A DNA stretch of 62,419 bases from Gammaproteobacteria bacterium (GTDB taxonomy: Bacteria; Pseudomonadota; Gammaproteobacteria; SZUA-140). The notes beneath the pieces were generated by a model. It was not told the origin of the DNA. It worked only from the letters and a program-made list of their open reading frames with translations, and made no database searches. The stretch is from positions 1 to 62,419 of the forward strand of contig JALSIC010000056.1 in assembly GCA_026981935.1 (NCBI GenBank), in the 5' to 3' direction. Of the stretch, positions 36,307 through 57,374 are shown one piece after another; within the stretch, counting starts at the first letter, position 1, and each line of letters begins with the position of its first letter. The translations under genes and the position numbers were made by a program.

Positions 36307-36402
36307 ATGTTATTAGATACGACGGGGGTCATCATCATCTACGCGTTGTGGTTCGTGTTTGCTTTTACTTTGGCAGTCATCCTGCTGAAGATCAATTCCT
36401 GA
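36307..36402 (+). CDS. Unannotated 31-aa single-TM microprotein (MLLDTTGVIIIYALWFVFAFTLAVILLKINS)
   Basis: Strong GGAGG RBS 6 nt before ATG; one hydrophobic helix; below the ORF-track cutoff. Confidence 0.6.
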   Translation: MLLDTTGVIIIYALWFVFAFTLAVILLKINS

Positions 36403-36552
36403 TGCTGAAGAACATTTGAATGTCGAAAACCTGAAAGCGAGTGCAGTGTGAGGAAATGTGCTGTACCCAGGTCGCAGGTTTTGCGGCTGTTGTTCGGGTT
36501 TTTGGAAGTGGGAAATAATAAATTTTTGGAAGATATCGGGAGGGGGCTGCAA

Positions 36553-37329
36553 ATGCAACAATCAAAGAGGTTCGTACTGGCGATTGCTATGCTGGGCGGT
36601 GTTGCGTTTTCCGCGACTGCAATCGCCGCGGAAGGCATGTTTTCCAAGGGTACGGGAAACAAGGCCAACGGTGAAAATATTTTCAAGAACGGCAAGGGCA
36701 ATGTGCCGGCATGTGCCAGCTGCCATGGTGAGGATGGTACGGGTAACGACATGTTGGGCACTCCGTTGATTGCTGGCCAGTTTTTTACTTTTCTCTTCAA
36801 GCAGCTGGAGGACTATGCGTCCGATAAGCGCATCGATACCACCATGAATGTCATGAATGACAATGCGAAGGGGCTGACTAGGCAGGATCGGATTGATGTG
36901 GCAACCTATCTCGCTAGTCTCAGACCCGAATTCAACGGATCTGACCTGGATGCCCTGAAAGAATCTGGCACGCCTGTGGGCCTGCCCTACAAGGGTCGGG
37001 CGATTGCCGAATATGGCAGTCCCGTACGTGATGATGGTTATCCCAAGGATTTGGGGAGCAAGGGCGCGGGCGTGCCCGCTTGCAAGTCCTGCCACGGGTA
37101 TGCTGGTCGTGGTGCCCCGCCCATGTATCCCAAGATCGGTCTGCAGCGATATACCTATCTGGTCAATCAGCTGAAGAAGTGGCGCGATGGCAGCCGGGCG
37201 AATGACCCCATGGGGCAGATGCGCGCTGTTGCAAGAAAACTGTCAGATGAGGACATCCACAATGTGGCCGCCTATCTGACCAACGCCAGCCCGTACACGC
37301 TCGGTAACTTCCGTCAGCCATACGAATAA
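36553..37329 (+). CDS. Periplasmic dihaem cytochrome c4-like protein
   Basis: Signal peptide (ATAIA-AE), CASCH and CKSCH, c4-type P-x-I-x-x-Q...L-x-x-QL repeats with Met ligands. Confidence 0.92.
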   Translation: MQQSKRFVLAIAMLGGVAFSATAIAAEGMFSKGTGNKANGENIFKNGKGNVPACASCHGEDGTGNDMLGTPLIAGQFFTFLFKQLEDYASDKRIDTTMNVMNDNAKGLTRQDRIDVATYLASLRPEFNGSDLDALKESGTPVGLPYKGRAIAEYGSPVRDDGYPKDLGSKGAGVPACKSCHGYAGRGAPPMYPKIGLQRYTYLVNQLKKWRDGSRANDPMGQMRAVARKLSDEDIHNVAAYLTNASPYTLGNFRQPYE

Positions 37330-37392
37330 TCTGTTGGTTTTGTTCGGAAAGGTTATGGCTGTGTGAGGTAAGGAAGCTGTCAGCCACGTGGG

Positions 37393-37427
37393 AGAGTGAG
37401 GGCGGTTTACGCCCTCACTCTTTCTTG
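37393..37427 (+). terminator. Intrinsic terminator after the dihaem cytochrome gene
   Basis: 12-bp stem AGAGTGAGGGCG/CGCCCTCACTCT followed by TTCTTG. Confidence 0.75.
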
Positions 37428-37602
37428 TATAAACGCTTTTTGCTATCCTGTCTTCTGCCCGTGGTGCCCTTGTTGTTTGTAATTACCCCACCATGGGAGA
37501 GGTGACGTCTGCCATCCTCCGCTTATTCTCGGTCCTTGTTACGAGGCAAGGGTTCGGGGACAGGCCTAATATCACATCATTTGCCAGCAGGACGAGCGTG
37601 TC

Positions 37603-38199
37603 ATGAGCAGCAAAACCCCACTCAAGTCAGGTGAGAAGATACTGTTTACGATCTTTGGCGTATTCTTCGTGCTCGCCATGATCGGTTATGGCGTTTTGGA
37701 ATACATCCGCCTCAATTCTGAGGAGCCCATTTTCGTGCAGCGAACGTTCTTCGACTTTTCCGAGAAAGGCTTGCGTGGTTCGGAGCTGTATCGCAAGGCC
37801 AACTGCAATGCCTGTCATCGTGCCCTGCGTGCGGGCACCAGCATGGGGCTTTCCCTGGACGGATTGGGTTCAAAGCGCTCCCTGGAATGGATAGAAGCCT
37901 TTCTGCGCAATCCAGAGGAAGTCTATGGAGCGCCCACCATTGACCATGGCCGGCCCCCCAAGGAGGCCGCCTACGTGTCAGAGCTGCCGGAAGAGACACG
38001 CCATCTGATCGCGGTCTTCATCTCGGAATTGCGGGCCGATCCTGGTTCATCGGTGGCCAAGGCGCCGCCGCCAGGACGCTCGGAATTCATCGACAGGATG
38101 GTGGGGGCCTGGGCGCCGGAAGAATGGAAGGAGAAATACCAGGACATTAGGGAAAAACAACAACAACAGGAGCAAGCCTTGGAGAAAATCGATGAGTGA
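37603..38199 (+). CDS. Membrane-anchored monohaem cytochrome c (NorC/CcoO-like fold)
   Basis: N-terminal TM, CNACH, SLDGLGSKRSLEWIEAFLRNP. Confidence 0.88.
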   Translation: MSSKTPLKSGEKILFTIFGVFFVLAMIGYGVLEYIRLNSEEPIFVQRTFFDFSEKGLRGSELYRKANCNACHRALRAGTSMGLSLDGLGSKRSLEWIEAFLRNPEEVYGAPTIDHGRPPKEAAYVSELPEETRHLIAVFISELRADPGSSVAKAPPPGRSEFIDRMVGAWAPEEWKEKYQDIREKQQQQEQALEKIDE

Positions 38200-38722
38200 A
38201 CCCTGGGAGCACGAGGATGAGGTCAATTACCGACGTTACACACTGTGGTTCGTCTATGCCTGTATCATATACAGCCTGATTGGCTTTACCTGGGGCGTGT
38301 TGATGGGCGGCATCGCGGAGTTCCGTTATTTCGTTGATCATCGCCTTCACGGCAATCTGATCGTCAGGGCGCATACCCACATCAATCTGCTGGGATGGGT
38401 GGAAATGGCCATCTTCGCGTCCATATACTACATCGTGCCGCGCCTGATCAAGCGGCCCATCTATAGCCTGCGCTTGGTCAAGGTGCATTTCTGGATTCAC
38501 AATGTCGGTCTCGTGGGGATGGTGCTCTTCTTCACCATTGCGGGCGTGGCTGGCGGTATCATGAGTCAGACCAGCACCCTGGACGAGGTGGAAAGCGTTG
38601 TTAAACCTCTATTGGCCATTATGGGTTTTTTTGGCAGCTTGGTTTTGTTAGCCAACATCATTTGGGCCTATAATCTGTTCAGGACCTGTTCCGGTTGGGA
38701 AAAACGCTATGCAAGCGCTTAA
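38192..38722 (+). CDS. Stand-alone 4-TM haem-copper oxidase subunit I-like protein (helices IX-XII type)
   Basis: RAHTHINLLGW, YYIVPRLIKRPIYSLRLVKVHFW, YNLFRT; parallels the C-terminal third of the ccoN at 43592. Confidence 0.8.
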   Translation: MSEPWEHEDEVNYRRYTLWFVYACIIYSLIGFTWGVLMGGIAEFRYFVDHRLHGNLIVRAHTHINLLGWVEMAIFASIYYIVPRLIKRPIYSLRLVKVHFWIHNVGLVGMVLFFTIAGVAGGIMSQTSTLDEVESVVKPLLAIMGFFGSLVLLANIIWAYNLFRTCSGWEKRYASA

Positions 38723-39224
38723 GATATGGTTAACAGCCGCTTTGTTGTGGGCGTTACTGACTGGTTGTATGGAGCCGCCTGAAGGGACTCTGAAGGTGGG
38801 TGCCAAGGCGCCCAGTCTCAGGACTGTCAAACTGGCCGATGTGGGTGGAGACTTCAGCCGTATTACGACTTATCGCTATCCAGATGAACGAATGTATCAG
38901 TATTCTCTCGATGAGGCTCTGCAGCTGGGCAAGCCCATTGTGTTGGAGTTTGCGACACCTGGACATTGTACGGTATGCGACAAGCAGCTCCAGATGCTGA
39001 AGGCCATGCTGGCCAAATACGGTGACCAAGTGATTTTTCTCCATATGGATCAGTACCAGAATCCAGGAGCCTTCATTGCCTATCGTGTCAAGGGGGATCC
39101 CTGGACATTCGTGATTGATGAGGAGGGAATTGTACGTTTCAAACGCCCGGGGCGGATGTTGTATCAGGAGCTGGATCAAGTACTATCCAAAATAGTGACT
39201 GCTTCCGAAGAAACAGCAGGATGA
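38709..39224 (+). CDS. Thioredoxin-fold lipoprotein (CTVC)
   Basis: Lipobox LLTGC, GAKAP, LEFATPGHCTVC, cis-Pro DPWTFVIDEEG. Confidence 0.85.
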   Translation: MQALKIWLTAALLWALLTGCMEPPEGTLKVGAKAPSLRTVKLADVGGDFSRITTYRYPDERMYQYSLDEALQLGKPIVLEFATPGHCTVCDKQLQMLKAMLAKYGDQVIFLHMDQYQNPGAFIAYRVKGDPWTFVIDEEGIVRFKRPGRMLYQELDQVLSKIVTASEETAG

Positions 39225-39228
39225 ACAA

Positions 39229-39687
39229 GTGGCTAACAAGAAAAATCAATTTGATCTTGTCCCGGACAAGAAAGGCCTGATATGGGATCTGTTGCTGTAT
39301 GTCACTACCGTCTTTGCACTGTTGTCCATCGGCATCAAGCTGTGGTTCAGCCCTGACCAGGGGTGGGCATATCTTCTGATCTTTCTTGCCAGCTTGTTCT
39401 TTTTCATCGGTGCGAACCGCATTCTCAAGACACGCCTCATGGTGTTGCCCTCTGCGCCTGTCTCTCTGGTCATTGAGCCGAGCCGGATACTCGTCAGGCT
39501 CAAGGACGGTACGGAGCAGGTTCTGGTCAAGGACCTGAAATTCTACTCGGAGATCGGCGGCAAGACATTTGCCCTGACCGGAATGGACCTGACGGGCAAG
39601 AAACAGCAATACATCTTTCATCGCGGCCAGTTCGTCGACGAAGGCGCCTACAATGACGCCAGGGCCTTGCTGGAAGTCTATCGCTGA
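39229..39687 (+). CDS. Hypothetical 2-TM membrane protein with soluble C-domain
   Basis: 152-aa ORF, 4 nt after the upstream stop; two hydrophobic helices. Confidence 0.75.
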   Translation: MANKKNQFDLVPDKKGLIWDLLLYVTTVFALLSIGIKLWFSPDQGWAYLLIFLASLFFFIGANRILKTRLMVLPSAPVSLVIEPSRILVRLKDGTEQVLVKDLKFYSEIGGKTFALTGMDLTGKKQQYIFHRGQFVDEGAYNDARALLEVYR

Positions 39688-39963
39688 TGCTCCACGGTAA
39701 GGGTTTTCATTGCGGCTGTTTTGCTTGTGATATCCCGGCGGGCGCGCCCCCGCCGCGAAGGGGACAGCTTTTCCAGCAAGCCCTGAAGATTTGAGGGATA
39801 GAAATGATGCCGGAACAATTTGAGGTTTACATTAACCATCGTGTAGCCTGCAGGCCCTCAAGGCCGGTATCCAGGGGAAGGCACCACTCATCCTGACAGC
39901 TTCGTGTAGCATGAATGCGGGCTCCCGCAGCCGGGATACAGACCCCGAGCCCCGGCATCCTCT

Positions 39964-40136
39964 TGTCATTGCCACCACACCTTTGTCATTTCGGCCATGC
40001 TTCTTTGTCATTTCTCGATACGCTCGAAATGACAGGGATAGTGTCATTCCCACCGTGCCTCCTTGCCATTGCCGCCACGCTGCCTTGTCATTGCGACCTC
40101 ACTTTCTTGTCATTTCCCGCTACGCTCGAAATGACA
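39964..40136. repeat. Array of seven TGTCATT-initiated units, including two TGTCATTTC-N11-GAAATGACA hairpins (GTCATT-type REP-like)
   Basis: TGTCATT/TGCCATT at 39964, 39984, 40006, 40042, 40064, 40086, 40108; hairpins 40006-40034 and 40108-40136. Confidence 0.75.
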
Positions 40137-40272
40137 GGCGTCACCTGGAACGACAACCGTCAACTGAAAACAATGAATCTCAACTATTGAAACTGACACG
40201 AGTGACCGATGGTCGTCATACAGACTGGATGCAGGGCACGAGGGCCGGAAGCGTGGGAAAGGTGGCTTTCAT

Positions 40273-40463
40273 CCCGGATTCCGTTTCGCTTCATCAGGCT
40301 ATGTATGTCAGGTATTTACTGAGGGTCTCGTAGTTGAATGGACAGGGTCCGGCTGTAAGTGCGCCGGTTTGGTAGCCTGTATGAAGCGCTGCAAGAGCGC
40401 AATCCAGGAAACCAGACGGCAAAACCCCCACACCCGGATTACGTTTCACTCCATCCGGGCTGC
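40273..40463. repeat. GTAG-type REP-like elements (one single plus an inverted doublet)
   Basis: GTAGCCTGTATGAAGCG...AATCCAGG (40372) with inverted CCCGGATTACG...CATCCGGGCTGC (40433-40463), and CCCGGATTCCG...CATCAGGCTAT (40273-40302). Confidence 0.7.
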
Positions 40464-40538
40464 ACATTTTGATGTGGACAATTATGAGACCATTAATCAA
40501 GTAATGCTCAATAGGCAATCGTGTGGTGGAACAGGCCT

Positions 40539-41129
40539 TCAGCTGACGATCACACGTTCCAGTTCCATGAAAGTCTTGGCGATATCTGCCGGTTCTATGG
40601 GAACGCCCATTTGACGGCCGATCTGGGTGGCCGAGAAGATACCACAGACTTCCATGACTTTCGTTGACTCGTTGCGGTTCACCACGATGGCGTGGTGGCG
40701 GCCGTTCTTGAGGAGGGTTTCGATGATGTCGCCGACCCGCGCCTCCTCGACGTCCCTGAGCATCAATACCTCGAGACGGTGGGCAGGCGTCATGATGTCA
40801 CCCACCCGGACTTCGTCGCGCGAGCAGTGCATCTTCTGCATGTGCAACATGGGTTTCTCGCCGAGAATATCGGCGGCCGTGATGATACCGCAGATGGCAT
40901 CGTCGTCATCGGTCACCAGCAGGAGCCGTACATTATTGAGGATCATTTGCTGGTTGCATTCATCCAGTGAAACCTGCGGCCGTGTGGTATGGGTTCTGGT
41001 GCGGCGCAGATCGGTCATGACATTGATGGCAGGGTCGTCCGATGTGACATGCAACAAGCTCGGCTTGGACAGATAGCAGATGTCTCCCATGCCCAGCAAA
41101 GTCGTGCGGAGTGCGCGGTACGGCTTCAT
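40539..41129 (-). CDS. CBS-domain protein
   Basis: PAINVMTDL, VRLLLVTD..ICGIITAADILGEKP, VGDIMTP, GRHHAIVV. Confidence 0.88.
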   Translation of the reverse strand: MKPYRALRTTLLGMGDICYLSKPSLLHVTSDDPAINVMTDLRRTRTHTTRPQVSLDECNQQMILNNVRLLLVTDDDDAICGIITAADILGEKPMLHMQKMHCSRDEVRVGDIMTPAHRLEVLMLRDVEEARVGDIIETLLKNGRHHAIVVNRNESTKVMEVCGIFSATQIGRQMGVPIEPADIAKTFMELERVIVS

Positions 41130-41385
41130 GATGGAGTGCCCTCCTCTTGGTAATTGTCAGGCCAGCTGTGGACCTTGCAATGGGATTATACGCATCGTCA
41201 ATACAACGGTTGAGTGCCAGGATCAGGATTGCCATGCCCCCGATGATTTTGTAGACTAAAATGGTCGGTTATTGCCATGCACTTAGTGTGCCTTTAAGGG
41301 ATCACACAACCCGGTTCTGAGGGGGATCGTGGGGGAGCATGGAGACCAGGCGAGTATTGATAATAAAACCCAAGGAGATCTCAAA

Positions 41386-41463
41386 ATGAAACTGAATGTT
41401 CTGGTGTTGCTCTTCATTCTCGCTTTCTTCATCTTCGTTATCCTTCCTGCCACTACCATCTAA
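41386..41463 (+). CDS. Unannotated 25-aa hydrophobic microprotein (MKLNVLVLLFILAFFIFVILPATTI)
   Basis: AAGGAG RBS 8 nt upstream; followed by a GC hairpin at 41480-41515. Confidence 0.55.
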   Translation: MKLNVLVLLFILAFFIFVILPATTI

Positions 41464-41585
41464 TTAAGTGCAATAAGGGCCCTCGGTCTGGGCAGCGCCA
41501 TGCCCAGGTCGAGGGACTGCGTTCTAAGGATTGCTGCTTTCAACGACCATCCGCGGCCATTTCTCTCGCGCGTTTGCGTTTCAGA

Positions 41586-42011
41586 TTAGGCTTCCCAGTC
41601 GGACTCGTCGGGATAGATCATGGGATTCTGATTGATGCGCCACATTTTGTGATGCGGCGGCTCCATGCCTTCGTCGTGGCAGGATTCCAGGCTGTGTTCC
41701 TCAGAGATGTCACAGACCAGAGGCGCATCTCCCATCGTGGCCTTGAACTGATACGGGAGGGTGCCGCATTGGTTCTTCCCCGTCGGAGAGCAGCTCTTGA
41801 CGCGGAACATGCCATAGAATGGATCTCAGCCTATGGCGCCTGTCAGTATCGGGTACACTGGCAGCAGCAGGGCATAGGTATCCCAGAAAGCGGCCTTGCT
41901 GACAGTGGCAACGATGAAGTAATAGGCACCCGCCACCAGGATGATACCAAGTACCAGGCGAAACAGCCTGTCAGCCAGGCCGATATTCTGAAACGGCTCA
42001 TGGTGAGTCAT
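41586..42011 (-). pseudogene. DUF2892/YgaP-like membrane protein interrupted by an in-frame TGA at 41826-41828
   Basis: QNIGLADRLFRLVLG...LTGAIG*DPFYGMFRVKSC...NQCGTLPYQ reads continuously in one frame across the stop. Confidence 0.75.
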
Positions 42012-42203
42012 ACTTGATGTGTTCAAGGCGATCACCTTCTTTACTGTGGTGATATGACACATCAGCTATTGGAACATGAGACGGCACGCCCTTCAGTAAC
42101 ATCGCTACATTGGGAAAACATGTTTTGATGCCTGCACGCGAGCGCAACAGCAGGTCCCGGTCAAGGGAGGGACAATGCCGCTTCTCAGCGATGAGCAAAG
42201 TGA

Positions 42204-42458
42204 TCAAGACTCATCCTGTCTCGATGGCTCCTTGTTCTGCAGGCTCTGCATATACAGGGCGTGCAGGCGGCGGCGGCGTACGATATTGCGGGCCATAAAT
42301 CCCATGGCGATGGCGCCGATGACAACGACAATGAACATGACGGTATTTTCCGTGCGTTCGCTGACCAGCCCGCCGATGAACATATGAACCGTGTAGGCAA
42401 GCAGTGTCAGTGAGCTGATGCCCACAATGCTGTAAATGATGATTTCCTTCTTGTCCAT
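42204..42458 (-). CDS. Small 2-TM membrane protein (84 aa)
   Basis: MDKKEIIIYSIVG...YTVHMFIGGLV...; two hydrophobic helices and a basic C-tail. Confidence 0.7.
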   Translation of the reverse strand: MDKKEIIIYSIVGISSLTLLAYTVHMFIGGLVSERTENTVMFIVVVIGAIAMGFMARNIVRRRRLHALYMQSLQNKEPSRQDES

Positions 42459-42899
42459 GATTCTAAGGTGTTTCCTTAAGCAGGTTAGGTGGGCCTTCGT
42501 AACCGGACAGTAAATGGTTGGCGCTCGTTTTTCCCTGGGTTGGACGATGGCCCTGTAATGAATGATAGACGTCAAGGTATAAGATTGCTGTGTCAGGATC
42601 GCAATGGCAAGGGGTTATTCATCGACACAGGTGGTCGTGAAGACGTGACAGTCGGCTAAAGGGTGCTTGAGCCAGTCATCAAGCTGAGATGTATCAGGTG
42701 CAGTCTAAGGCAAGGGGCGGCAAATTTATGACGCACAGTACGCTGTCCCGATTTCAATATGATACATGAGTAAAATGATCATATTCAATATCTGTTTGAT
42801 TACAAAGATGTATTTTTGTTTGAGTCAAGACAGGCAATGAGCCTGCCCGGGTGGATGGGGTAACCGGGAAACGGGCGCAAAACAGGCCTGGACGGGAGC

Positions 42900-46770: not shown

Positions 46771-46920
46771 ATGATTGATATCGATTTCGCACCCACTGTA
46801 TTTGCATTTATCATACTTGGCGTTTTGATCCTGCCGGCATGGTACGGCTTTGCGATGGTCGATAAATACTGGCAGAAGCATAAAGCCGAGGACTCAGATG
46901 ATGTGGATGCTTTCAACTGA
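46771..46920 (+). CDS. Unannotated 49-aa single-TM protein (CcoQ-like size and position)
   Basis: GAGGAG RBS; MIDIDFAPTVFAFIILGVLILPAWYGFAMVDKYWQKHKAEDSDDVDAFN; directly before a terminator. Confidence 0.7.
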   Translation: MIDIDFAPTVFAFIILGVLILPAWYGFAMVDKYWQKHKAEDSDDVDAFN

Positions 46921-50259: not shown

Positions 50260-50652
50260 ATGGTGGCAGGGTTTGCGAGACAGGCAGGGAGAGCGATTTT
50301 CGCCGGGCTGGGTTTTGTTCTCATCGCGGGTACCGTCATGCTTATAGATAGGGTGCCTGCCTATGCCGCGGCAGCCCAGGGGGATCAGAGCCTGGAAGTC
50401 ATGAAGGGATTCACGGAGCAGGAGAAGGTCGAAAGCGACATCGTCAAGATATCGACCAAGAGAAAACACCAGATCATGTTTTTCATGGGCTTCGTGTTGC
50501 TCATCGGCATTATTGCAACCGCGGGGCTGGGTGTGGCCATGGTGCTGTTTGGCAAGGAAGTTTTTGTCGCACATATGGTTTGTGCCATTTTCAGTGTTTT
50601 CTTGTCGATCGCCCATGCGGTGGTCGCCATCGTCTGGTTTTTCCCTTTCTGA
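50260..50652 (+). CDS. Small membrane protein with His residues in TM helices
   Basis: GGAGG RBS; KHQIMF, FVAHMVC, SIAHAVV suggest possible haem b binding. Confidence 0.75.
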   Translation: MVAGFARQAGRAIFAGLGFVLIAGTVMLIDRVPAYAAAAQGDQSLEVMKGFTEQEKVESDIVKISTKRKHQIMFFMGFVLLIGIIATAGLGVAMVLFGKEVFVAHMVCAIFSVFLSIAHAVVAIVWFFPF

Positions 50653-50667: not shown

Positions 50668-53307
50668 ATGCATTCCGGCTCCACGCTCGGCGCCTCCGTG
50701 AGCCATAGCGCGTGTGCGCGAAAATACGGCCTCTGGTTGCTGCTTGGCGTCTATTTCCTGTCCGGAGTGACCGGCGTGGCCTATGAGGTCCTCTGGGTCC
50801 GCATGCTGTCCATCCAGTTTGGGGTGAGCAGTTTCGGCGTCATCATGACCATTGCGGTTTTCATGGCCGGCCTGGGGCTGGGCAGTCTTGTGGGGACTCA
50901 TATATCGACGCGAGTGGCCAGGCCGTTATTGTTGCTGGCGGGGCTGGAGGCCAGTGTAGCCCTGTTCGCATTGTCCATGCCGTGGTTGTTTGGCGTGATT
51001 GACGGGATGCTGGGAGAAGTCGCCGCCTCCTGGCCGTTGTCACTGTGGTATCTCGTCCAGGCTGGCATTGCCTTTCTGCTTCTCTTTGTTCCTTGTCTTG
51101 CCCTTGGGATTGGTTTTCCGCTGGTACTCAGAATCGTGAGGGGGAGCGGGACGAGCCTGGCCGCGGTCTACGGTATCAATACCGTGGGGGGTGCCGTCGG
51201 TGCGCTGGCCCCCCTGGCCCTCCTGCCCCTGCTCGGCTGGTCCTATGCCATGCAGGCGGTGGCTGTGTTGGGCCTGCTGGTCGCAGGGGCTTTCGGCCTT
51301 CTTGCGCAGTTTAAGGTTCTGCCCCATGCAGCCCCACCCTCGCATGCGACGCAGCGACCTGGCTGGACTGTCCTGTTGGTCTACGGGGCCATAGGTGCGG
51401 CTGCCCTGATGGTGGAAATCGGCTGGACCCGCCTCTATGGTATGATTCTTTTGCGCACGGAATATGTGCTGGCCATTATTCTGTTCATATTTCTCGCAGG
51501 TATCGGCTTGGGAAGTCTGCTGGCGCGCTGGTTGCCCCCGCGCCTGGGATTGCAGTGGTTTCCCCTCTTCGCCGCCCTTGCGGGGCTGTACAGTCTCTGG
51601 GGGCTCACCGCCCTGGCAGCCTGGGCCGGTAACGCACATTTCGACTCCCTCTTTCAGGCCATGCTCATGCAGGGACTGGCCCTTGCCTTGTTGACCTTGC
51701 CCCTTACCCTGATCCTCGGTGCCTGGCTGCCCTTGCTGGTACGCCGACTCGCGGGTGGAGAGCCGCTGAGCGGCGCCTGGCTGTATGGCGCCAATGCCGT
51801 GGGTGCTGCCCTGGGGGCAGTGGCCTGTGGTTTTCTTCTCGTACCTGCCGTGGGGACGGCGGCCACGATTGCCCTGGCGTCGATTCTGTTGTTTACGTTT
51901 GGCATGCGCTGGTCGCAGCAGCGCTGGTTGTGGCTGGCAATGCCCTTGCTCATCGTCGCTGCCTGGCCGCTGCAGCGTCTGCCCCCGGTGAAGGCGCTTC
52001 TGCCCAAGCATGCCGAAAGCCGGCAGCTCATGCTCTATGAAGATGCGATTTCCATCACCCACGTTATTGAAGAGCCGGACGGCCAACGCATCCTCCTTTC
52101 TGATCTGCGCAGAATGGACGCCTCCACTGAACCGACCGCGGTCGTGGTGCAGAAAAATCAGGCCCGCCTGCCGCTGTTGCTGCATGGCAGCCCTCGCACG
52201 GTCTTGTTTCTGGGGCTGGGGACCGGCATCAGCGCCTCAGCGGTTCTCGCCTTGCCGGGCACGGAGACCACAGCGGTGGAACTGTCCTCGGGGGCTATCA
52301 GCGCGGCACGGTCTTTTTTTGCGCCGGTCAACGGCGGGGTCGTGGAACGAATCAGGGTGGTGCACGATGACGCACGGCGTTATTTGCGCGCCGGCGAGGC
52401 GCGCTACGATGTCATTGTCGGTGATCTGTTTCATCCGGATATGGTGGGGCGCAGCAATCTGCTCTCGGTCCAGCAGTTCCGCCGGGTGCGGGAGCGGCTC
52501 GCCGATGGTGGCGTGTATGTGCAATGGCTGGCCTTGAACCAGTTCGACCGGGAGACAGTGGCGACGGTCATGCGCAGCTTCCAGCAGGTTTTTCCCCATG
52601 GTGCGCTCTATCTGGACGGCTTTCGCCTGGCGCTGGTGGGCCCGTCAGAGCGCATGGCCTCTTTGCTGGCCCGGGCCCAATCCGCCTGGCAACAACGACT
52701 CTCGGAGGCGCAGAGAGAACGTCTCACGGGAGGGGAGGGAATCTGGACCTGGCTGGGGAGATATTGGGGGCCCATCCGCATGCTGCCGGGGCCGCTCCAG
52801 GATGAATGGGCGCCGCAGATCGAATTCAGACTGCCGGCCCTGCGTTACGGGAACGGCATGGAGCTGGCCGCCACCCTCGAATGGCTGCTGGGCCTGCGGC
52901 CTTCCCCGGAAGAGGCGGGTCGTCAGCTTGGTCTGAATTCGGGGCCAGACCATGAATCCTTTGAGAGAGCCTATATTGCCACGGAACTTGCTGCAAGAAG
53001 CTGGCTTGCGGCATTTCGAGGCCACGCGGGAGAGGCGCAACGCCTCATCCGGTTTGCCTACGAGGCCAATCCCGATGATCGCTGGGTGGGGTACGATCTG
53101 GCGGACAGGATCTATGCCTCTCTTTCACAGTTGGCAGAAGACGACCGGTATGCCGTTCTGGACAGGATCCTGACGATTCGTCCTGACCATGTCCAGGCCT
53201 TGAAGGCTATGCTCAGGCTGGAACTGGCACGCAATCCTGATTCTCCCGCCATCGAACGTTACCGGGAAAGGTTGCGAAAAATCAGTCCCCTTGGGCATCT
53301 TCCCTGA
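50668..53307 (+). CDS. Fused MFS-like membrane domain / spermidine-synthase-like SAM-binding domain protein
   Basis: SGVTGVAYEVLWVR and a duplicated TM block; FLGLGTGIS, VELS, DDARRYL, YDVIVGDLFHP; helical C-tail. Confidence 0.88.
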   Translation: MHSGSTLGASVSHSACARKYGLWLLLGVYFLSGVTGVAYEVLWVRMLSIQFGVSSFGVIMTIAVFMAGLGLGSLVGTHISTRVARPLLLLAGLEASVALFALSMPWLFGVIDGMLGEVAASWPLSLWYLVQAGIAFLLLFVPCLALGIGFPLVLRIVRGSGTSLAAVYGINTVGGAVGALAPLALLPLLGWSYAMQAVAVLGLLVAGAFGLLAQFKVLPHAAPPSHATQRPGWTVLLVYGAIGAAALMVEIGWTRLYGMILLRTEYVLAIILFIFLAGIGLGSLLARWLPPRLGLQWFPLFAALAGLYSLWGLTALAAWAGNAHFDSLFQAMLMQGLALALLTLPLTLILGAWLPLLVRRLAGGEPLSGAWLYGANAVGAALGAVACGFLLVPAVGTAATIALASILLFTFGMRWSQQRWLWLAMPLLIVAAWPLQRLPPVKALLPKHAESRQLMLYEDAISITHVIEEPDGQRILLSDLRRMDASTEPTAVVVQKNQARLPLLLHGSPRTVLFLGLGTGISASAVLALPGTETTAVELSSGAISAARSFFAPVNGGVVERIRVVHDDARRYLRAGEARYDVIVGDLFHPDMVGRSNLLSVQQFRRVRERLADGGVYVQWLALNQFDRETVATVMRSFQQVFPHGALYLDGFRLALVGPSERMASLLARAQSAWQQRLSEAQRERLTGGEGIWTWLGRYWGPIRMLPGPLQDEWAPQIEFRLPALRYGNGMELAATLEWLLGLRPSPEEAGRQLGLNSGPDHESFERAYIATELAARSWLAAFRGHAGEAQRLIRFAYEANPDDRWVGYDLADRIYASLSQLAEDDRYAVLDRILTIRPDHVQALKAMLRLELARNPDSPAIERYRERLRKISPLGHLP

Positions 53308-53661: not shown

Positions 53662-54429
53662 TCAGCGGAAACTCAGGTGCAGCATCCGTCCCCCGGTTTT
53701 CTGGGCCAGGGTCCTGTATTCGAGCTCCGTATCGGGATCGGAGCGCCCCATGGGCAGGGTGAAAACGGGGCTGGGTATCTCGCTGTAGTGAATGGTGTCA
53801 TCCGAGGGCTCATCTCCGATGAGCATGTAGACCCCGGGGACCGGTGCATCCCGTGCTGCCACCCGGAAGGCACGACCGATGGTTTCCCGGTTTCCCACGA
53901 AGGGTGCTTCGCTCATCAGATTGTCGAACATCTCGCCCATGGTGCCCTGGTAAGTGACGGCCCTTTTGTCCGAGAACCAAGTGATGGCGTTGAGTTCCTT
54001 GTCCGCGCGCGTGACGATGAGGCGCAGGATGGGAACGAGGAACATGGAGGCGCCATGCATGGATCCCGATGCATCGACGATCAGGTGGATGTCCCTGCCA
54101 GGCATCTTCTTGAGCCCCTCGATGAACATCTCGAAGTCTTTCTTCCCCACCTGGGCGGCCTCCAGGATGGTTTCCACCTGGGTCTCGGGATCGGTGAGCA
54201 CCACCCTCTGGAAGTTTTTCTTCAGGCGCTCGCGATCCGACTCGGCGAGCTGCAGCTGTTCCTGGAGCATTTCCACCTGTTTTTGCAGTTTGGGAAGTTC
54301 GTTCTCCTCGGCGAGCCGGCTGGTGATCAGGATGGTGACCAGGAGAAAGACGAAAGTCGCCAGCATCAGCAGCGCGACGTCGGAGAAGCTTTCATGGACG
54401 TTGCTGGTGGTCTTGCGGATCTTGGCCAT
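53662..54429 (-). CDS. MotB/ExbD-like TM helix + coiled coil + vWA domain protein
   Basis: ESFSDVALLMLATFVFLL (Asp at the helix start), coiled coil, MIDAS IVDASGSM...ETIG...IGDEPS. Confidence 0.8.
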   Translation of the reverse strand: MAKIRKTTSNVHESFSDVALLMLATFVFLLVTILITSRLAEENELPKLQKQVEMLQEQLQLAESDRERLKKNFQRVVLTDPETQVETILEAAQVGKKDFEMFIEGLKKMPGRDIHLIVDASGSMHGASMFLVPILRLIVTRADKELNAITWFSDKRAVTYQGTMGEMFDNLMSEAPFVGNRETIGRAFRVAARDAPVPGVYMLIGDEPSDDTIHYSEIPSPVFTLPMGRSDPDTELEYRTLAQKTGGRMLHLSFR

Positions 54430-54466
54430 GACAGCCGGCTCCCGGGTCGTAAGGCGGTGGAGCGGG

Positions 54467-55477
54467 CTAGCCACCCCGCAGGGCACGTCGCAGCCTGCCC
54501 CACCATGAGCGGTTGATGCGGTTGATCATCTGGATCTCCTTCTTCAGAAGATCAGTATAATACATTTGCAACACAACGGAATCGCGCAGCGTCTTGTTCC
54601 GGTCTTCCGTGTCATTGAGTTGGTTGAGATGGGTGGCCTCCTCGCGGAACTGCTGCATGGCGATCTTGGTGTCGTGCAGGGCGTTACGCAGCGTCTGAAC
54701 ATTGACACCCAGGTGTTCGATTTCCGCATTGAGCGCCCGGATATCCCGTTCCATGGTGGGCTTGCAGTCGGAGGCGCAATAGACCATGCAGATCTTTTTC
54801 AGGGTATCGGAAAGATTGTGGATACCGCCATCCGTGATGAGGGCGAATACCCGCAGGATCACCCCGCCCAGCACCGAACCCAGGAGGGTGGTATAAAAAG
54901 CGGTGCCCATCCCTCCCATGGCCTTGCGCAGGCCCGAGAGCAGGCGCTGCTGATCTTCTCCCAGCGCCTCCAGGGAGGAGGTCAGTCCGGCCAGCGTCAG
55001 GGTGAGTCCGATGACCGTCCCGATGAGGCCCAGGGTGATGAGAAGATTGCCGATAACCTCCACCACGTGGCTCTTGCGATGGTAATCGGCGAGTTCCACA
55101 TCGATGAGGGCCTCGATGTCGGGCTGGGCGTTCTTTGACAGCACCTCCTTGAGCGCCAGGAAAAAACGCTGTACCGCATGCTCGTTGTCGTCGGGATTGA
55201 TGCCGGGGAGACTGTCCTTCTTGGCGATATTGCCCAGCCTGACAGCCTCGCTGGCCTCGTTCGTAATGGAAATGGTCAGGGCAAAGCTGACGGCCACCCC
55301 CATGCCGAACAGGCCCATGATGACCCAGGTGATCCGGCTTTGGTCCTGGCGTATGAAGTCCCACAGGTTGGTATCCAGGTACAGGAGAAAATAGACGGCG
55401 ATTGCCGTGCCGGCCCATCCCAGCCAGAGTATCAGGGCGCGGTAGGATTGCTCGTGAACCAGCCGTTTGCTAGCCAT
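54467..55477 (-). CDS. MotA/TolQ/ExbB proton-channel family protein with C-terminal coiled coil
   Basis: LITLGLIGTVIGL and GMGTAFYTTLLG signatures. Confidence 0.88.
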   Translation of the reverse strand: MASKRLVHEQSYRALILWLGWAGTAIAVYFLLYLDTNLWDFIRQDQSRITWVIMGLFGMGVAVSFALTISITNEASEAVRLGNIAKKDSLPGINPDDNEHAVQRFFLALKEVLSKNAQPDIEALIDVELADYHRKSHVVEVIGNLLITLGLIGTVIGLTLTLAGLTSSLEALGEDQQRLLSGLRKAMGGMGTAFYTTLLGSVLGGVILRVFALITDGGIHNLSDTLKKICMVYCASDCKPTMERDIRALNAEIEHLGVNVQTLRNALHDTKIAMQQFREEATHLNQLNDTEDRNKTLRDSVVLQMYYTDLLKKEIQMINRINRSWWGRLRRALRGG

Positions 55478-55675
55478 GTATGACTTCGTCTTTCAAGATA
55501 ACAGGCAAGATAACGTGCAAGATCACGGATACGAGGCGGTGCAGAGAATCTTCCATGTGCCATTGCCACGGGGCAAGGTGAATCCAACGATGCATGACAT
55601 GCCTCGGACACATCCTCCTGCCGGTTGATCCGGCTTGGTTTCAGGCAGCTTTGTCTGCTTCGGGCCGCAAAAACG

Positions 55676-55710
55676 AAAAAAGACCAGAAAATACTGCCCT
55701 GGCCTTTTTT
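55676..55710. terminator. Probable intrinsic terminator
   Basis: AAAAAAGACCAG...CTGGCCTTTTTT hairpin downstream of the 55766-55879 microprotein. Confidence 0.65.
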
Positions 55711-55765
55711 CATGTTGTTTGGGGTTTGATTATTGTTCTGAACGAAAACCCTGGTAGCCTCCCCC

Positions 55766-55879
55766 TTACAAAGCCAGGACAGATGAGGCCAGATAGAGCA
55801 GGAAAAACCAGATAACTGCGATCGAAATAACGATAAACCCATCCATATTGTTGATATTGGTGCTGTTTCCTCCGCTCAT
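55766..55879 (-). CDS. Unannotated 37-aa single-TM microprotein (MSGGNSTNINNMDGFIVISIAVIWFFLLYLASSVLAL)
   Basis: AGGAGG RBS, hydrophobic C-half, downstream terminator. Confidence 0.6.
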   Translation of the reverse strand: MSGGNSTNINNMDGFIVISIAVIWFFLLYLASSVLAL

Positions 55880-56335
55880 TTCTCCCTCCTAAACGTTATT
55901 ATGATAATGAATCAGGTGACCAGAAACCACAACCAATCACGGGAAACTATTACATAAGACAAAGGGGCAGGTCAAGCCGCGGGCGGGGTTTTTGTGGGCC
56001 AAGCTTATGATTTAGAGGGTGACAGGTTATCTCCCCCTGTCACGCAGGTTTTTCCATGTTGTTCCTCCCTTGCAGTTTGATTAGAATTGATTGATTAAGT
56101 AAATAACACATGAAGTTTCGGGGAAATTTTCTTTCTGGGGGTTAGAGAATTGCCTGGCGGTCGGGACGGGGAGGGAGGCGTGCCACTGTCGGCCGTGGGA
56201 TCTGTGTTTCATATCTCATTCATTTCCTTCATATTCTCCTCCCCATGGCAAGGTTGGCTGGGCAAGTTGGGGCATCCCTGGGCCACAGCCTGAAATGGCA
56301 AAGATGTCAAATATTGTAAAGAGCAGGGTCTGAGT

Positions 56336-56851
56336 GTGCTGGTACAACGAGAATTATTGAAGTATCTGATCGCTTCGGCATTTTTCTTTTTCGTGGGGAC
56401 GGTCCATGGTGTCATTCAGGTGATACCGCCGGTGCGGGCCTGGCTGGATTCCATCGGCAGTCCCTATGGTGGCCCCGGCCATATGATCGATCCCCTGGCC
56501 CATGCCCACATCAACGTGGTGGGCGGCGTGGTTCTGCTGTGCATGGCGGTCACCTATTACCTGTTTCAGGCCATTACCGGCAAACCGGTTTATTCCGTAC
56601 GCCTGGTCAATCATTCCTTCTGGTGGACGGCATTGGGCATAACCGGTTTCTATTCCACACTGATGATTTTCGGGATCCTGGAGGGCAGGGCCCTGCTGGC
56701 AGATGACGTCGCTACCATGGAGTCGTTGAAAAGCATCTACGGCCCTCTCATCGCAGTTGTTGCCACCGGCATGGGGATCGGTTTCTGGGTGTTTTTTGCC
56801 AACGTCTTTCTCACCGTCAAAAAGGTGATGTTTCCGCGCCATGATGCTTGA
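56336..56851 (+). CDS. Second stand-alone 4-TM HCO subunit I-like protein
   Basis: TVHG, GHMIDPLAHAHINVVGG, YYLF..ITGKPVYSVRL, FFANVFLT; paralogue of 38192..38722. Confidence 0.8.
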   Translation: MLVQRELLKYLIASAFFFFVGTVHGVIQVIPPVRAWLDSIGSPYGGPGHMIDPLAHAHINVVGGVVLLCMAVTYYLFQAITGKPVYSVRLVNHSFWWTALGITGFYSTLMIFGILEGRALLADDVATMESLKSIYGPLIAVVATGMGIGFWVFFANVFLTVKKVMFPRHDA

Positions 56852-57374
56852 GTGCGGCTGCCCTTCCGAATATCCGGACTGGCACGATACGGATGTGGAT
56901 CTGGGCGGCATGCCCATTCATGTGCTCCCGGTTCCCATGCTGGTGCATATGCCCCTTGCTTACGAGACTTATCTCAAGAAGCAGCAGCAGGCCATCTTCA
57001 GGCTGGAGCTGAAGGAGCGCTGGCCTGGACTGGTTCTTCTGCGTACCGGGATGCTGCGCGGGCGCATTGTCCGCCTGCTGGTGGATGAGACCCATTCCCT
57101 GTCCAGCCAGGTGGGACACTTTCCCATCCCCTATCAGGTCAGGGCATGGCTGCATCATGGCAACGTCAGCACCATCCGCACGGTCGTGCGGGAGATGCAG
57201 ATGGCACTCATCGACAGCGGACGCATGCCCAAGGCGCTGCATCTGTGCTACCTCACCTGTCCCCGCTGCAGTGAGGACCGGGGTGGGGAAAAGCTTCTGC
57301 TGCTCAGGCACTGGCAGGAGAGCGCCATGTTGCGCAGCCGGCAACACAAGCGCACGATGGATCAGTCCCGATAG
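56841..57374 (+). CDS. Cys-motif hypothetical protein (possibly GyrI-like fold)
   Basis: ECGCP at the N-terminus and CYLTCPRC near the C-terminus; overlaps the upstream gene. Confidence 0.75.
   Translation: MMLECGCPSEYPDWHDTDVDLGGMPIHVLPVPMLVHMPLAYETYLKKQQQAIFRLELKERWPGLVLLRTGMLRGRIVRLLVDETHSLSSQVGHFPIPYQVRAWLHHGNVSTIRTVVREMQMALIDSGRMPKALHLCYLTCPRCSEDRGGEKLLLLRHWQESAMLRSRQHKRTMDQSR

Follow-up and report, generated by a model that had tools for sequence, protein, structure and literature searches.

A probable copy of the 'distal' cbb3-type oxidase supercluster in a gammaproteobacterial MAG

The region from 36.5 to 57.4 kb of the window (the whole 62,419-nt stretch of DNA that was analysed) is likely to represent, in this MAG, the conserved cbb3 oxidase supercluster of the 'distal' (iron-oxidiser/Tenderiales) type. 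Open reading frames, profile matches and a comparison of loci showed a cluster of about 25 genes around an unusual cbb3-type oxidase, a type known from bacteria that oxidise iron or feed on electrodes, to be intact and strongly conserved, with the gene order shared by 55-79 of 80 related loci, including those of Ca. Tenderia, Sideroxydans and Gallionella, and retained in four loci of another class; the synteny of the accessory genes with this CcoN clade, which an earlier sequence-only reading had proposed as a check, was thereby borne out. Seventeen cluster genes had orthologues in 50-79 of 54-80 eligible loci, where a locus was eligible if long enough to show the given gene and the denominators (54-80) differ by gene. 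One locus (L057) carried a distal-type CcoN without any partner gene. The conserved block begins further upstream than position 36307, where the sequence-only reading had started it, with the following gene, an orthologue of which was found in 40 of 54 eligible loci.

34224-35723, minus strand: PMT_2-like multi-pass membrane protein, 499 aa (PF13231, weak, E 8.6e-4); first gene of the conserved block

The novelty implied by that reading did not hold, as the cluster, of the 'distal' cbb3 type, is already in print with a gene-level map from Ca. Tenderia electrophaga (bioRxiv 10.1101/2022.05.06.490989). Our analysis makes three additions: the enzyme as the sole haem-copper oxidase found in the MAG, a 215-aa protein as a probable CcoP-anchor derivative, and the separability of an upstream module.

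The oxidase subunits and their genomic setting

43592-45001, plus strand: CcoN, divergent ('distal') cbb3-type catalytic subunit (COX1 E 1e-72)
45117-46073, plus strand: enlarged CcoO-like monohaem subunit, 318 aa (FixO 55.7 bits, cut-off 29.6)
46093-46740, plus strand: 215-aa 2-TM protein, no CXXCH (FixP_N sub-threshold in orthologues)

CcoN scored 225.9 bits against TIGR00780 (cut-off 583.15), with 3mk7_A as its best PDB match (E 5.5e-62), and its residues H65, H206, Y250, H256, H257, H344 and H346 aligned to the P. stutzeri ligands, giving a complete haem and copper set. These seven active-site residues were invariant in 81 distal sequences and common to 7-9 of 9 canonical CcoN. The distal clade differs at canonical channel residues, with A316 for Y, G239 for S and Q322 for E (the last a difference from 7 of the 9 canonical CcoN), which suggests that proton handling may differ. 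Across 401 sampled genomes CcoN identity was bimodal, at either 64-77% or at most 33%, and by this gap in sequence identity the protein falls into a distinct clade. Sequence and structure model together suggest that, with a complete haem b / haem b3-CuB site and a cross-link tyrosine, CcoN would reduce O2. That it reduces nitric oxide or another substrate instead might be argued from the kinship of C-family oxidases and NO reductases and from the loss of some canonical cbb3 channel residues in the clade, but we hold this to be very improbable, given that neither the cross-link tyrosine nor any of the three CuB histidines varies, that PDB sequence matches at E<=0.001 were to cbb3 and ba3 oxidases only, with no NOR among them, and that an invariant glycine occupies position +4 after the first CuB histidine, where cNOR has its iron-binding glutamate.

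The match of the CcoO-like subunit to FixO covered only profile positions 52-143 of 219 (residues 175-266), with about 140 extra residues separating the membrane anchor from the haem domain. Its CWWCH motif and M257 were invariant in 76 sequences, and this enlarged monohaem CcoO would pass electrons to the O2-reducing CcoN.

The window's own copy of the 215-aa ORF gave no Pfam match, FixP_N included; 11 of 36 orthologues did match FixP_N around residues 31-64, each below the Pfam cut-off of 24.9 bits. A predicted complex of the protein on CcoN/CcoO reached an ipSAE of 0.86 (best control 0.01), with at least 77% of contacts agreeing between runs and a partner pLDDT of at least 79. In the tool's calibration 58 of 80 solved complexes passed the ipSAE mark, as did 2 of 110 mismatched pairs; our model differed from that calibration in using its own alignments and three chains. 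CcoN-CcoO resembles solved cbb3 structures, so the confidence may come in part from structures that the predictor had already seen. From the sub-threshold FixP_N matches and the predicted CcoN/CcoO fit, the 215-aa protein is probably a haem-less derivative of the CcoP N-terminal membrane anchor. In the structure model it would pack on CcoN helices near the active-site tyrosine and histidines, and this two-helix protein, retaining the anchor motif, would stand in for dihaem CcoP. Of the 61 sampled genomes for which a distal CcoN was listed, 60 had the 215-aa protein, and among the genomes whose only listed CcoN was canonical it occurred solely in seven fragmented f41-family assemblies. The earlier claim that canonical CcoP is absent stands for the dihaem protein, but a remnant of its N-terminal domain is likely to be encoded here.

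Whole-genome absences rest on a MAG completeness of 96% (96.15%), and on this basis neither cytochrome bd, nor an intact cytochrome b (a fragment only), nor FixH was found, nor any CcoP above cut-off (best 47.6 against 179.95 bits). There were three COX1 matches in the genome, all within the window, and one FixO match. The distal cbb3 is the only haem-copper oxidase, and the only terminal oxidase, found in the MAG. The canonical ccoP, ccoG and ccoH noted as missing beside ccoN and ccoO were found nowhere else in the genome either; a CcoG-like polyferredoxin occurred on contig C2 only, below cut-off (120.9 against 316.7 bits). Two copper P1B-ATPases were encoded elsewhere, so a CcoI equivalent is possible.

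On contig C25 the MAG also carries an 11-haem (undecahaem) ORF alongside three trihaem ORFs and a tetrahaem one; together with its ACIII-like genes and two RuBisCO large subunits, these fit the lithotroph or electrotroph previously suggested. As the sole terminal oxidase found, the distal cbb3 should receive the electrons that run downhill from donors outside the cell or in the periplasm, and the ACIII-like genes would serve the uphill branch. Electrons would come from the c-type cytochromes of the cluster, a periplasmic dihaem c4 and two anchored monohaem proteins.

The upstream module and the stretch before ccoN

36553-37329, plus strand: periplasmic dihaem cytochrome c4-type protein with signal peptide (two CXXCH; Cytochrom_C twice, E 1e-17)
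37603-38199, plus strand: membrane-anchored monohaem cytochrome c, 198 aa (one CXXCH, N-terminal TM; Cytochrom_C E 2.2e-6)
38192-38722, plus strand: separately encoded 4-helix copy of TM9-12, the final third of CcoN (COX1 positions 304-433, E 2.2e-19)
38709-39224, plus strand: TlpA/ResA-like thioredoxin-fold lipoprotein, H-C-x-x-C (weak AhpC-TSA, Redoxin, Thioredoxin and DsbE/ResA matches; lipobox Cys20)
39229-39687, plus strand: 152-aa 2-TM protein with soluble C-terminal domain (orthologue in 59 of 73 eligible loci)
39962-40138, strand not assigned: short direct repeats (families D1 and D2) at the edge of a lineage-specific insert
40539-41129, minus strand: CBS-domain protein (PF00571 E 7.2e-9; in 2 of 80 loci only)
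41826-42062, minus strand: YgaP-like small membrane protein (PF11127 E 5.1e-6; in 2 of 80 loci)
42204-42575, minus strand: small 2-TM protein between the two modules, on the opposite strand (tblastn matches in 59 of 80 loci)
43068-43358, plus strand: glycine-rich 2-TM protein, 96 aa, just 5' of ccoN (orthologue in 79 of 80 loci)

Open reading frames and profiles confirmed the dihaem c4, two 4-TM HCO-like proteins and the CxxC lipoprotein at the places given by the sequence-only reading. The c4 had an orthologue in 51 of 63 eligible loci and is a probable electron donor, a candidate Cyc1-like carrier. In the 198-aa cytochrome, C68, C71, H72 and M81 were invariant in 52 sequences, and its stop codon overlaps the start of the 4-helix gene (38192), as neighbouring genes do elsewhere in the module. 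The 4-helix protein retains the HxH haem-ligand motif, with H61, H63, H99 and H103 at least 95% conserved in 57 sequences, and its AF2 model (pLDDT 88.7) placed cbb3 CcoN chains on top in Foldseek (TMq 0.77-0.79, rmsd 1.7-2.3 A), with the superposition on CcoN at TMq 0.79 and 1.7 A. C20, H86, C87 and C90 of the TlpA-like lipoprotein were invariant in 60 sequences, and the 152-aa protein had no Pfam or NCBIfam match.

The upstream module is genetically separable from the oxidase genes. Of the 63 loci whose upstream sequence extends for 4.4 kb or more, 12 lacked it within 10 kb. In the Sideroxydans-type loci it was inverted, L079 and L083 have it inverted and divergent, and in L074 it was relocated. 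A dedicated assembly line, high affinity and a supercomplex are what we infer at most for the distal cbb3, and the idea of one supercomplex was not supported in view of the absent and inverted modules. The module may be a small haem-binding unit for electron entry or maturation. An alternative reading makes the module a haem-binding membrane complex in its own right, separate from the oxidase and without a part in its assembly, whose job could be electron entry or a relay from cytochrome c to the membrane. The missing, inverted and relocated copies, the overlaps among its own genes, the conserved HxH and two further histidines of the 4-helix protein and a separate name ('cbb3-1') in the Tenderiales preprint all favour such independence, but in 55 of 68 eligible loci, as in three of the four loci from the other class, the module stands beside the oxidase genes, and we regard this independence as conceivable though rather doubtful.

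Between the two modules, the CBS and YgaP-like genes belong to an insert of ~2.5 kb outside the conserved block. The tblastn matches of the small 2-TM protein that follows span about half of its ORF, and its true start is probably an internal Met. The GMGNGSVFG motif of the glycine-rich protein was invariant.

Downstream genes and the variable right end

46771-46920, plus strand: 49-aa peptide with one TM helix (tblastn match in 28 of 80 loci; query short)
47287-47625, plus strand: FixQ-like 2-TM protein, 112 aa (PF05545 E 7.5e-4, below cut-off; orthologue in 62 of 70 eligible loci)
47638-47928, plus strand: CcoS/FixS-like single-TM protein, 96 aa (PF03597 20.9-21.5 bits, below the 23.1 cut-off)
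47925-48434, plus strand: membrane-anchored monohaem cytochrome c, 169 aa, weakly CcoO-like (one CXXCH; Cytochrom_C E 1.6e-4, FixO E 3.1e-3)
48418-48909, plus strand: 3-4-TM protein, 163 aa (orthologue in 62 of 67 eligible loci)
48914-49981, plus strand: membrane-anchored FGE-sulfatase-fold protein (PF03781 E 2e-59; orthologue in 60 of 62 eligible loci)
49932-50225, plus strand: small single-TM protein, DSYR...TPW motif conserved (orthologue in 38 of 60 eligible loci)
50260-50652, plus strand: 3-TM protein, 130 aa (orthologue in 57 of 60 eligible loci; scattered weak Pfam matches only)
50668-53307, plus strand: fused MFS-like and spermidine-synthase-fold protein, 879 aa (NF037959 101.6 bits, cut-off 40; PF01564 E 1.2e-11)
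53662-54486, minus strand: 274-aa membrane-anchored protein, 'vWA' of the sequence-only reading, variable neighbour (D-A-S-G-S motif by eye only)
54467-55477, minus strand: MotA/ExbB-family protein paired with it, variable neighbour (PF01618 E 1.1e-10)
56336-56851, plus strand: second stand-alone 4-helix CcoN-C-terminal paralogue, HxH retained (COX1 positions 309-413, E 9.8e-11)
56841-57374, plus strand: 177-aa soluble protein overlapping the end of the second 4-helix gene (PF20603 25.8 bits, cut-off 27)

Profile matches upheld the FGE-like and MFS/spermidine-synthase-like proteins (PF03781, NF037959), and 11 small membrane ORFs were counted in the cluster where more than 10 had been claimed. 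The CcoS-like assignment has the sole PF03597 match in the genome in its favour, though this falls under the cut-off; the DGWTIY and QFDEDIKY motifs were invariant in 70 sequences. Both monohaem cytochromes are present and anchored as described, but with generic Cytochrom_C and weak FixO-like matches their label 'NorC-like' could not be told from 'CcoO-like'; the 169-aa protein had an orthologue in 67 of 68 eligible loci. The 163-aa protein had no Pfam match, the FGE-like protein had no invariant Cys among the 65 sequences compared, the conserved portion of the small single-TM protein begins at about residue 38, and membrane-embedded M94, H105, M106 and H119 were invariant in the 130-aa protein. 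The fusion protein had an orthologue in 55 of 57 eligible loci.

The small membrane peptides of 96, 49 and 112 aa probably complete the oxidase complex. From family resemblance and tight packing, the CcoS-like gene included, we read the run from the FixQ-like gene to the fusion mainly as putative cofactor insertion and maturation genes. The FGE-like, small membrane and MFS/spermidine-synthase genes could instead have an envelope or polyamine role that is unrelated to the oxidase, whose genes they would simply accompany: no family that includes any of them has a shown role in cbb3 biogenesis, conserved cysteines are missing from the FGE-like protein, and the small proteins give no consistent Pfam signal. 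We think this unlikely, since these genes trail the CcoS-like and cytochrome genes with overlaps or gaps of at most 34 nt, in an order kept in 55-68 of 57-69 eligible loci from three lineages.

In the comparison of 80 loci, the MotA/vWA pair and the CBS/YgaP insert lay outside the core of the cluster. MotA was confirmed by its profile, but the 'vWA' protein had no profile match at E<=0.01; tblastn matched the MotA-like gene in 13 of 80 loci (orthologues in 10) and the 'vWA' gene in 11 (orthologues in 9, at three different positions). The second 4-helix copy, 31% identical to the first, had orthologues in 8 loci, all close relatives, and the 177-aa protein had tblastn matches in 9 loci, adjoining the 4-helix paralogue.

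Comparison with known systems

For Ca. Tenderia electrophaga, the preprint (bioRxiv 10.1101/2022.05.06.490989) lists the same order in its cbb3-1/cbb3-2 region: an unlabelled first gene, dihaem cytochrome, monohaem cytochrome, truncated CcoN, thioredoxin and small proteins, then CcoN, CcoO, small proteins, monohaem cytochrome, a 'serine threonine protein kinase' that corresponds to our FGE-fold gene, a single-TM protein and, further on, a second truncated CcoN. The same neighbours surround a CcoN that is 81% identical in a Ca. Tenderia sp. MAG locus (L060). In contrast to the Tenderia region as there described, the CcoG-like gene here lies outside the block on another contig, the CBS/YgaP insert divides the two modules, the MotA-like pair precedes the second truncated CcoN, and the canonical CcoNOQP that stands beside the Tenderia cluster was not found in this MAG. 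The two Tenderia papers name different oxidases as the principal one.

The link that the sequence-only reading drew to Zetaproteobacteria and Gallionellaceae that oxidise iron is borne out by both the papers and the names of relatives, CcoN sharing 72-82% identity with proteins named Mariprofundaceae, Zetaproteobacteria, Sideroxydans and Gallionella. The term 'distal' goes back to Ducluzeau et al. 2008, according to PMC7029218, PMC10734462 and PMC8788666; these three papers cover only ccoN and ccoO of this type and describe a subunit set unlike the proximal one, as we found here. Most Fe-oxidising Gallionellaceae and Zetaproteobacteria also hold a proximal cbb3 or bd oxidase, neither of which was found in the MAG, and in S. 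lithotrophicus ES-1 distal ccoNO was expressed ~3-fold above the proximal form, with distal genes rising on thiosulfate and not on Fe(II).

Against the canonical CcoNOQP and CcoGHIS systems (P. stutzeri 3MK7/5DJQ, P. aeruginosa 8SMR, R. capsulatus 6XKW), CcoN here is 29-33% identical, the NCBIfam ccoN and ccoO cut-offs are not reached, dihaem CcoP and FixH are lacking, CcoO is ~140 residues longer, and Y, S and E are replaced at positions 316, 239 and 322. Common to both are the CcoN fold, the seven metal and cross-link residues, the monohaem CcoO core, a CcoS-like gene and a CcoP-N-terminal-like motif, carried here by the 215-aa protein.

The distal cbb3 oxidase and its gene block

Mapping from a six-frame ORF listing, codon-position GC, motif scans and Pfam and NCBIfam profiles placed the following genes in and around the oxidase block, in which many adjacent genes overlap or lie less than 35 nt apart.

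Genes of the cluster: window coordinates, strand and product; a closing fraction gives loci with an orthologue (identity of 35% or more, coverage of 60% or more, intact ORF) over related loci long enough to show that gene
36553-37329, +, dihaem cytochrome c4 (two CXXCH; Cytochrom_C E 1e-17); 51/63
37603-38199, +, 198-aa anchored monohaem cytochrome; 50/66
38192-38722, +, 176-aa four-helix protein, first copy (COX1 profile positions 304-433, E 2.2e-19); 55/68
38709-39224, +, TlpA/ResA-like lipoprotein, HCxxC; 56/69
39229-39687, +, 152-aa protein with two transmembrane (TM) helices; 59/73
40.5-42.1 kb, -, CBS protein and YgaP-like protein
42204-42575, -, small 2-TM protein
43068-43358, +, 96-aa 2-TM protein; 79/80
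43592-45001, +, CcoN (COX1 E 1e-72)
45117-46073, +, 318-aa CcoO-like protein (FixO 55.7 bits, cut-off 29.6; residues 175-266 only, profile positions 52-143 of 219 only); 73/75
46093-46740, +, 215-aa 2-TM protein, no haem motif; 72/73
46771-46920, +, 49-aa peptide
47287-47625, +, FixQ-like protein; 62/70
47638-47928, +, CcoS-like protein; 68/69
47925-48434, +, 169-aa anchored monohaem cytochrome; 67/68
48418-48909, +, 163-aa membrane protein; 62/67
48914-49981, +, anchored FGE-fold protein (PF03781 E 2e-59); 60/62
49932-50225, +, small membrane protein, 97 aa; 38/60
50260-50652, +, small membrane protein, 130 aa; 57/60
50668-53307, +, 879-aa MFS/spermidine-synthase fusion (NF037959 101.6 bits, cut-off 40); 55/57
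53662-54486, -, 274-aa partner of the MotA-family protein
54467-55477, -, MotA-family protein
56336-56851, +, second four-helix protein (COX1 C-terminal)
56841-57374, +, 177-aa protein

The gene inventory of the sequence-only reading, which had described a ccoN and ccoO cassette lacking canonical ccoP, ccoG, ccoH and ccoI and carrying a large accessory set, was borne out by the ORF, motif and profile map with four corrections. The ccoO gene is present and is the 318-aa gene adjoining ccoN, with a CWWCH motif and Met257. For the 274-aa protein, the vWA member of the proposed MotA/vWA pair, a DxSxS-like motif is visible in the sequence and no Pfam or NCBIfam match was obtained at E ≤ 0.01, and the cytochromes called NorC-like are anchored monohaem cytochromes c, with nothing more specific supported. 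The CcoS-like label fits a single TM helix and a QFDED motif, which we take to be in keeping with CcoS/FixS, but the PF03597 score of 20.9-21.5 bits falls just below the 23.1 cut-off.

Alignment of CcoN with that of P. stutzeri (3mk7_A; phmmer, E 5.5e-62) placed H65, H206, H256, H257, H344 and H346 at the positions of the haem b, CuB and haem b3 ligands, and Y250 opposite Y251, the helix VII cross-link tyrosine that precedes the HH pair by six residues. Y250 was found in 81/81 distal sequences and in 8/9 canonical ones, and the ligand and tyrosine set as a whole is invariant in the 81 clade members and common to 7-9 of 9 canonical CcoN from other genomes. A nitric oxide reductase was considered for this protein; cNOR and qNOR are not known to have a cross-link tyrosine and use a glutamate ligand for FeB, and the reading was rejected as Y250 is present and G210 stands at +4 from H206. 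No such reductase was found among the PDB sequence matches of CcoN at E ≤ 0.001.

Both subunits missed the NCBIfam equivalog cut-offs (ccoN, 225.9 against 583.15 bits; ccoO, 57.2 against 200.65 bits), and CcoN identity across 401 sampled genomes of the phylum was bimodal, at either 64-77% or at most 33% with nothing between. CcoN belongs to the distal clade, far from canonical ('proximal') CcoN, with 78-96% identity to the 80 related loci fetched by CcoN similarity; the terms proximal and distal reportedly go back to Ducluzeau et al. 2008. Clade-specific replacements include A316 for a canonical Y, G239 for S, H236 for Y and L319 for S, and Q322 replaces the E of 7/9 canonical sequences; some of these are presumably proton-pathway residues or partners of the haem b3 ligand in cbb3. 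Judged from its sequence, this is a genuine O2-reducing type of oxidase, far from the canonical form.

The GC content of the region is 0.49-0.55 against 0.633 genome-wide. In 56 other loci the cluster GC follows that of the host, with flanks a median of 0.031 above the cluster, and third-position GC is high in several cluster genes (0.77 in CcoN), and therefore membrane-protein composition explains part of the dip. Recent horizontal transfer was not shown by composition, given this tracking of host GC elsewhere and the third-position value of CcoN. Promoter-like sites numbered 21 against 13.5 ± 2.9 in shuffles and terminator-like sites 21 against 18.5 ± 4.8; two of the promoter-like sites lie at 42900, before the 96-aa gene, and at 47114, before the FixQ-like gene (weak).

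Conservation of the accessory set

By scanning one genome per species, we identified 333 relatives and used the best 80 loci (78-96% CcoN identity), 43 of which span the full 21 kb, so that each gene was counted only in loci long enough to show it. The loci came from MAGs labelled Gammaproteobacteria, Chromatiales, Ectothiorhodospiraceae, 'Biocath_Gamma', Candidatus Tenderia sp., Sideroxydans sp. and Candidatus Gallionella acididurans. Gene order was the same across them, and it was kept in four loci of family f41, a bacterial family of another class which we take to be Zetaproteobacteria because named homologues at 72-74% identity are Mariprofundaceae. The accessory genes thus stay syntenic with this CcoN clade, as the counts in the table and the shared order attest, and the kinship with iron-oxidising lineages named in the sequence-only reading is upheld by the Sideroxydans and Gallionella loci and the Mariprofundaceae homologues.

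Of the 63 loci with 4.4 kb or more of sequence upstream, 12 lack the upstream module (c4 to the 152-aa protein); the module is inverted in L079 and L083 and rearranged in L074. One distal-type CcoN of 80% identity (L057; CAWJPQ010000003.1, 10001-11404) stands without the usual neighbours for 10 kb in both directions and is either an orphan copy or part of a rearranged genome. Further upstream in the window, 33749-35723 holds two more genes: one of the PsiE family, syntenic in 6/80 loci, and one for a PMT_2-like membrane protein, syntenic in 40/54 eligible loci.

An insert of ~2.5 kb (39700-42100) separates the two conserved modules; it holds the genes of the CBS-domain and YgaP-like proteins and, at 39962-40138, short direct repeats, and was found in 2/80 loci, the close relatives L025 and L030. 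For the MotA/ExbB-like protein and the 274-aa membrane protein paired with it, tblastn gave matches in 11-13/80 loci, with orthologues in 9-10; in relatives the two genes occupy three different positions near the cluster, always on the opposite strand. Being rare, and in the case of the pair variable in position, these genes are lineage-specific or loose neighbours and not core. Zorya-type defence was rejected for the MotA-like gene, whose ZorA scores (17.6-19 bits) fall below the cut-offs (100-500). Directly after the cluster lies a 673-aa dynamin-family GTPase gene (57381-59402, -; Dynamin_N E 4.9e-16). No counterpart turned up in the related loci, whose 10-kb flanks stop short of this position.

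The 215-aa protein and the four-helix proteins

The 215-aa protein occupies the position of CcoP with no CXXCH and no Pfam match of its own. No PDB structure was matched by Foldseek at E ≤ 0.001, VIA-align wide gave generic helical hairpins (best Z 6.3), and the matches of a profile to sequences in the PDB were all at chance level. All 120 listed homologues, the best of 1815 found, were unnamed or 'hypothetical', and in the ESM Atlas the protein sits only among unnamed clusters. When orthologues were scanned singly, FixP_N, the N-terminal domain of CcoP, was matched in 11/36 (best E 2.5e-5), every score being under the 24.9-bit cut-off; in 5/10 rescanned members the match fell at residues ~31-64 (profile positions 10-45 of 48), a stretch comprising the conserved GG..E.NNRLP motif and the first helix.

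A three-chain model of CcoN (1-460), CcoO and the 215-aa partner gave ipSAE values of 0.86, 0.86 and 0.87 (best of three controls 0.01); the mark set for the tool is reached by 58/80 solved complexes and 2/110 mismatched pairs. The result supports binding and does not show it, and self-made alignments and the use of three chains depart from the tool's calibration. The runs agreed in at least 77% of contacts, with a pLDDT of at least 79 for the 215-aa partner. Its two helices and residues 24-41 contact CcoN 223-291 in the model, the helices carrying Y250 and H256/H257, together with CcoN 88-91, 160-167 and 325-333 and CcoO 16-31 and 196-208, and 5 of the 17 clade-specific CcoN positions (88, 162, 236, 239 and 275) fall in this modelled interface. 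The protein was found in 67 of 400 sampled genomes, including 60 of the 61 with a listed distal CcoN (the single miss has a CcoN fragment only) and seven further carriers that are fragmented assemblies of family f41, counts that come from close kin and are not independent. In our reading, the 215-aa protein probably descends from the membrane anchor of CcoP, lacks haem and has been kept as a structural subunit.

The first four-helix protein, whose gene overlaps that of the 198-aa cytochrome, gave an AF2 model (pLDDT 88.7) that can be laid over the C-terminal portion of the CcoN chain in cbb3 structures such as 8smr_E and 3mk7_A (TMq 0.77-0.79, rmsd 1.7-2.3 Å over ~160 columns, E ~2e-5), and in the ESM Atlas its neighbours are clusters named 'putative CcoN'/DUF2871. 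Conserved in the family are the HxH pair, whose counterpart in CcoN ligates haem b3 and haem b, as well as H99 and H103, and the family is therefore a plausible, putative haem binder.

Formylglycine-generating enzymes have a catalytic cysteine pair, and in 65 sequences of the FGE-fold protein no cysteine was at least 95% conserved, so it is no ordinary formylglycine enzyme. In the 130-aa protein the membrane-embedded M94, H105, M106 and H119 are invariant and could form a metal or haem site. No consistent family signal emerged when 144 orthologues of six small membrane families were scanned against Pfam, the same scan giving scattered weak matches to FixQ (5 members), DUF4233 (8) and DUF4079 (4). 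The CcoS-like and thioredoxin-like members and the tight linkage are what suggests that the downstream run, from the FixQ-like gene to the fusion gene, may serve maturation.

Genome context and described relatives

The assembly that holds the window (2.52 Mb, 111 contigs, 96.15% complete) has all three of its COX1 matches and its single FixO match inside the window, and its only FixS-like match is the cluster copy. The proposal that canonical ccoP, ccoG, ccoH and ccoI elsewhere in the genome could serve this CcoN found little in its favour, as the genome has no CcoP above cut-off (best ccoP match 47.6 against 179.95 bits) and no FixH was found in it, and a CcoG-like polyferredoxin near the end of contig C2 (1704-3029, -) scored 120.9 bits against a cut-off of 316.7; two copper P1B-ATPases are encoded outside the cluster, so that one of them could act as a CcoI-like copper pump. 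No cytochrome bd was found in the genome, and the sole cytochrome b match is a 51-position fragment (contig C52, 46473-46625). The genome appears to rely on the distal cbb3 oxidase alone.

On contig C25 (2131-14605), an 893-aa ORF with 11 CXXCH follows three trihaem ORFs and one tetrahaem ORF, a set that, going by the published description, resembles the Tenderiales uetA-J extracellular electron-uptake cluster (bioRxiv 10.1101/2022.05.06.490989). Contig C51 carries a pentahaem ORF and an NrfD-family gene 3.4 kb apart, a pair that looks like ACIII, and two RuBisCO large subunits are encoded in the genome. A crude Cyc2 filter, set to ORFs of 330-650 aa with one CXXCH among their first 110 residues, returned two implausible ORFs only, which is not evidence of absence. 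This gene content fits an autotroph passing electrons from outside the cell straight to the distal oxidase.

One joint reading of these data seems to us possible though doubtful: distal cbb3 would be a structurally distinct subtype in which the dihaem CcoP has been cut down to a haem-less two-helix subunit keeping only the CcoN-docking/channel-mouth motif, while anchored monohaem cytochromes, as separate proteins, have taken over electron entry; a haem-binding 'one-third CcoN' standing by itself would form, with its own cytochrome c, a new minimal membrane electron-transfer unit; and, in organisms that like this one have lost bc1 and have no other oxidase, extracellular electron uptake would be coupled to O2 by this machinery alone.

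Distal cbb3 oxidases, with which ~15 accessory genes are co-inherited, presumably serve as terminal oxidases in neutrophilic iron oxidisers and in cathode-feeding electroautotrophs, organisms that matter for iron cycling, corrosion and bioelectrochemistry. Our literature search on distal cbb3 and truncated CcoN found no biochemical study of any member. Proximal and distal forms are named in PMC7029218, PMC10734462 and PMC8788666, the last reporting for S. lithotrophicus ES-1 a normalised expression of distal ccoNO ~3-fold above the proximal form, and an increase on thiosulfate and not on Fe(II)-citrate. The accessible passages of PMC4643136 and PMC3770913 state that iron oxidisers have cbb3 oxidases and say no more on them. 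A non-canonical 'complex IV-2', which may or may not be this cluster, is placed among the most highly expressed gene sets of Ca. Tenderia in PMC5371394, whereas the later preprint (10.1101/2022.05.06.490989) identifies the main oxidase as the canonical one.

The cluster in the window is authentic and intact, belongs to a type described before and is no new kind of system; this copy contributes its apparent sole-oxidase context and two leads, the probable haem-less CcoP-derived subunit and the separable module with a stand-alone CcoN fragment. The same preprint lists the genes of the region in the same order, calls it 'a sort of alternative complex IV' and notes that it was seen earlier in freshwater iron oxidisers. 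The gene order of the cbb3-1/cbb3-2 region of Ca. Tenderia electrophaga in its Fig. 2B legend, including two truncated CcoN copies, matches that of the window, as does the order in the related locus L060, with the difference that the CcoG-like gene lies inside the block in Ca. Tenderia and is displaced to contig C2 here.
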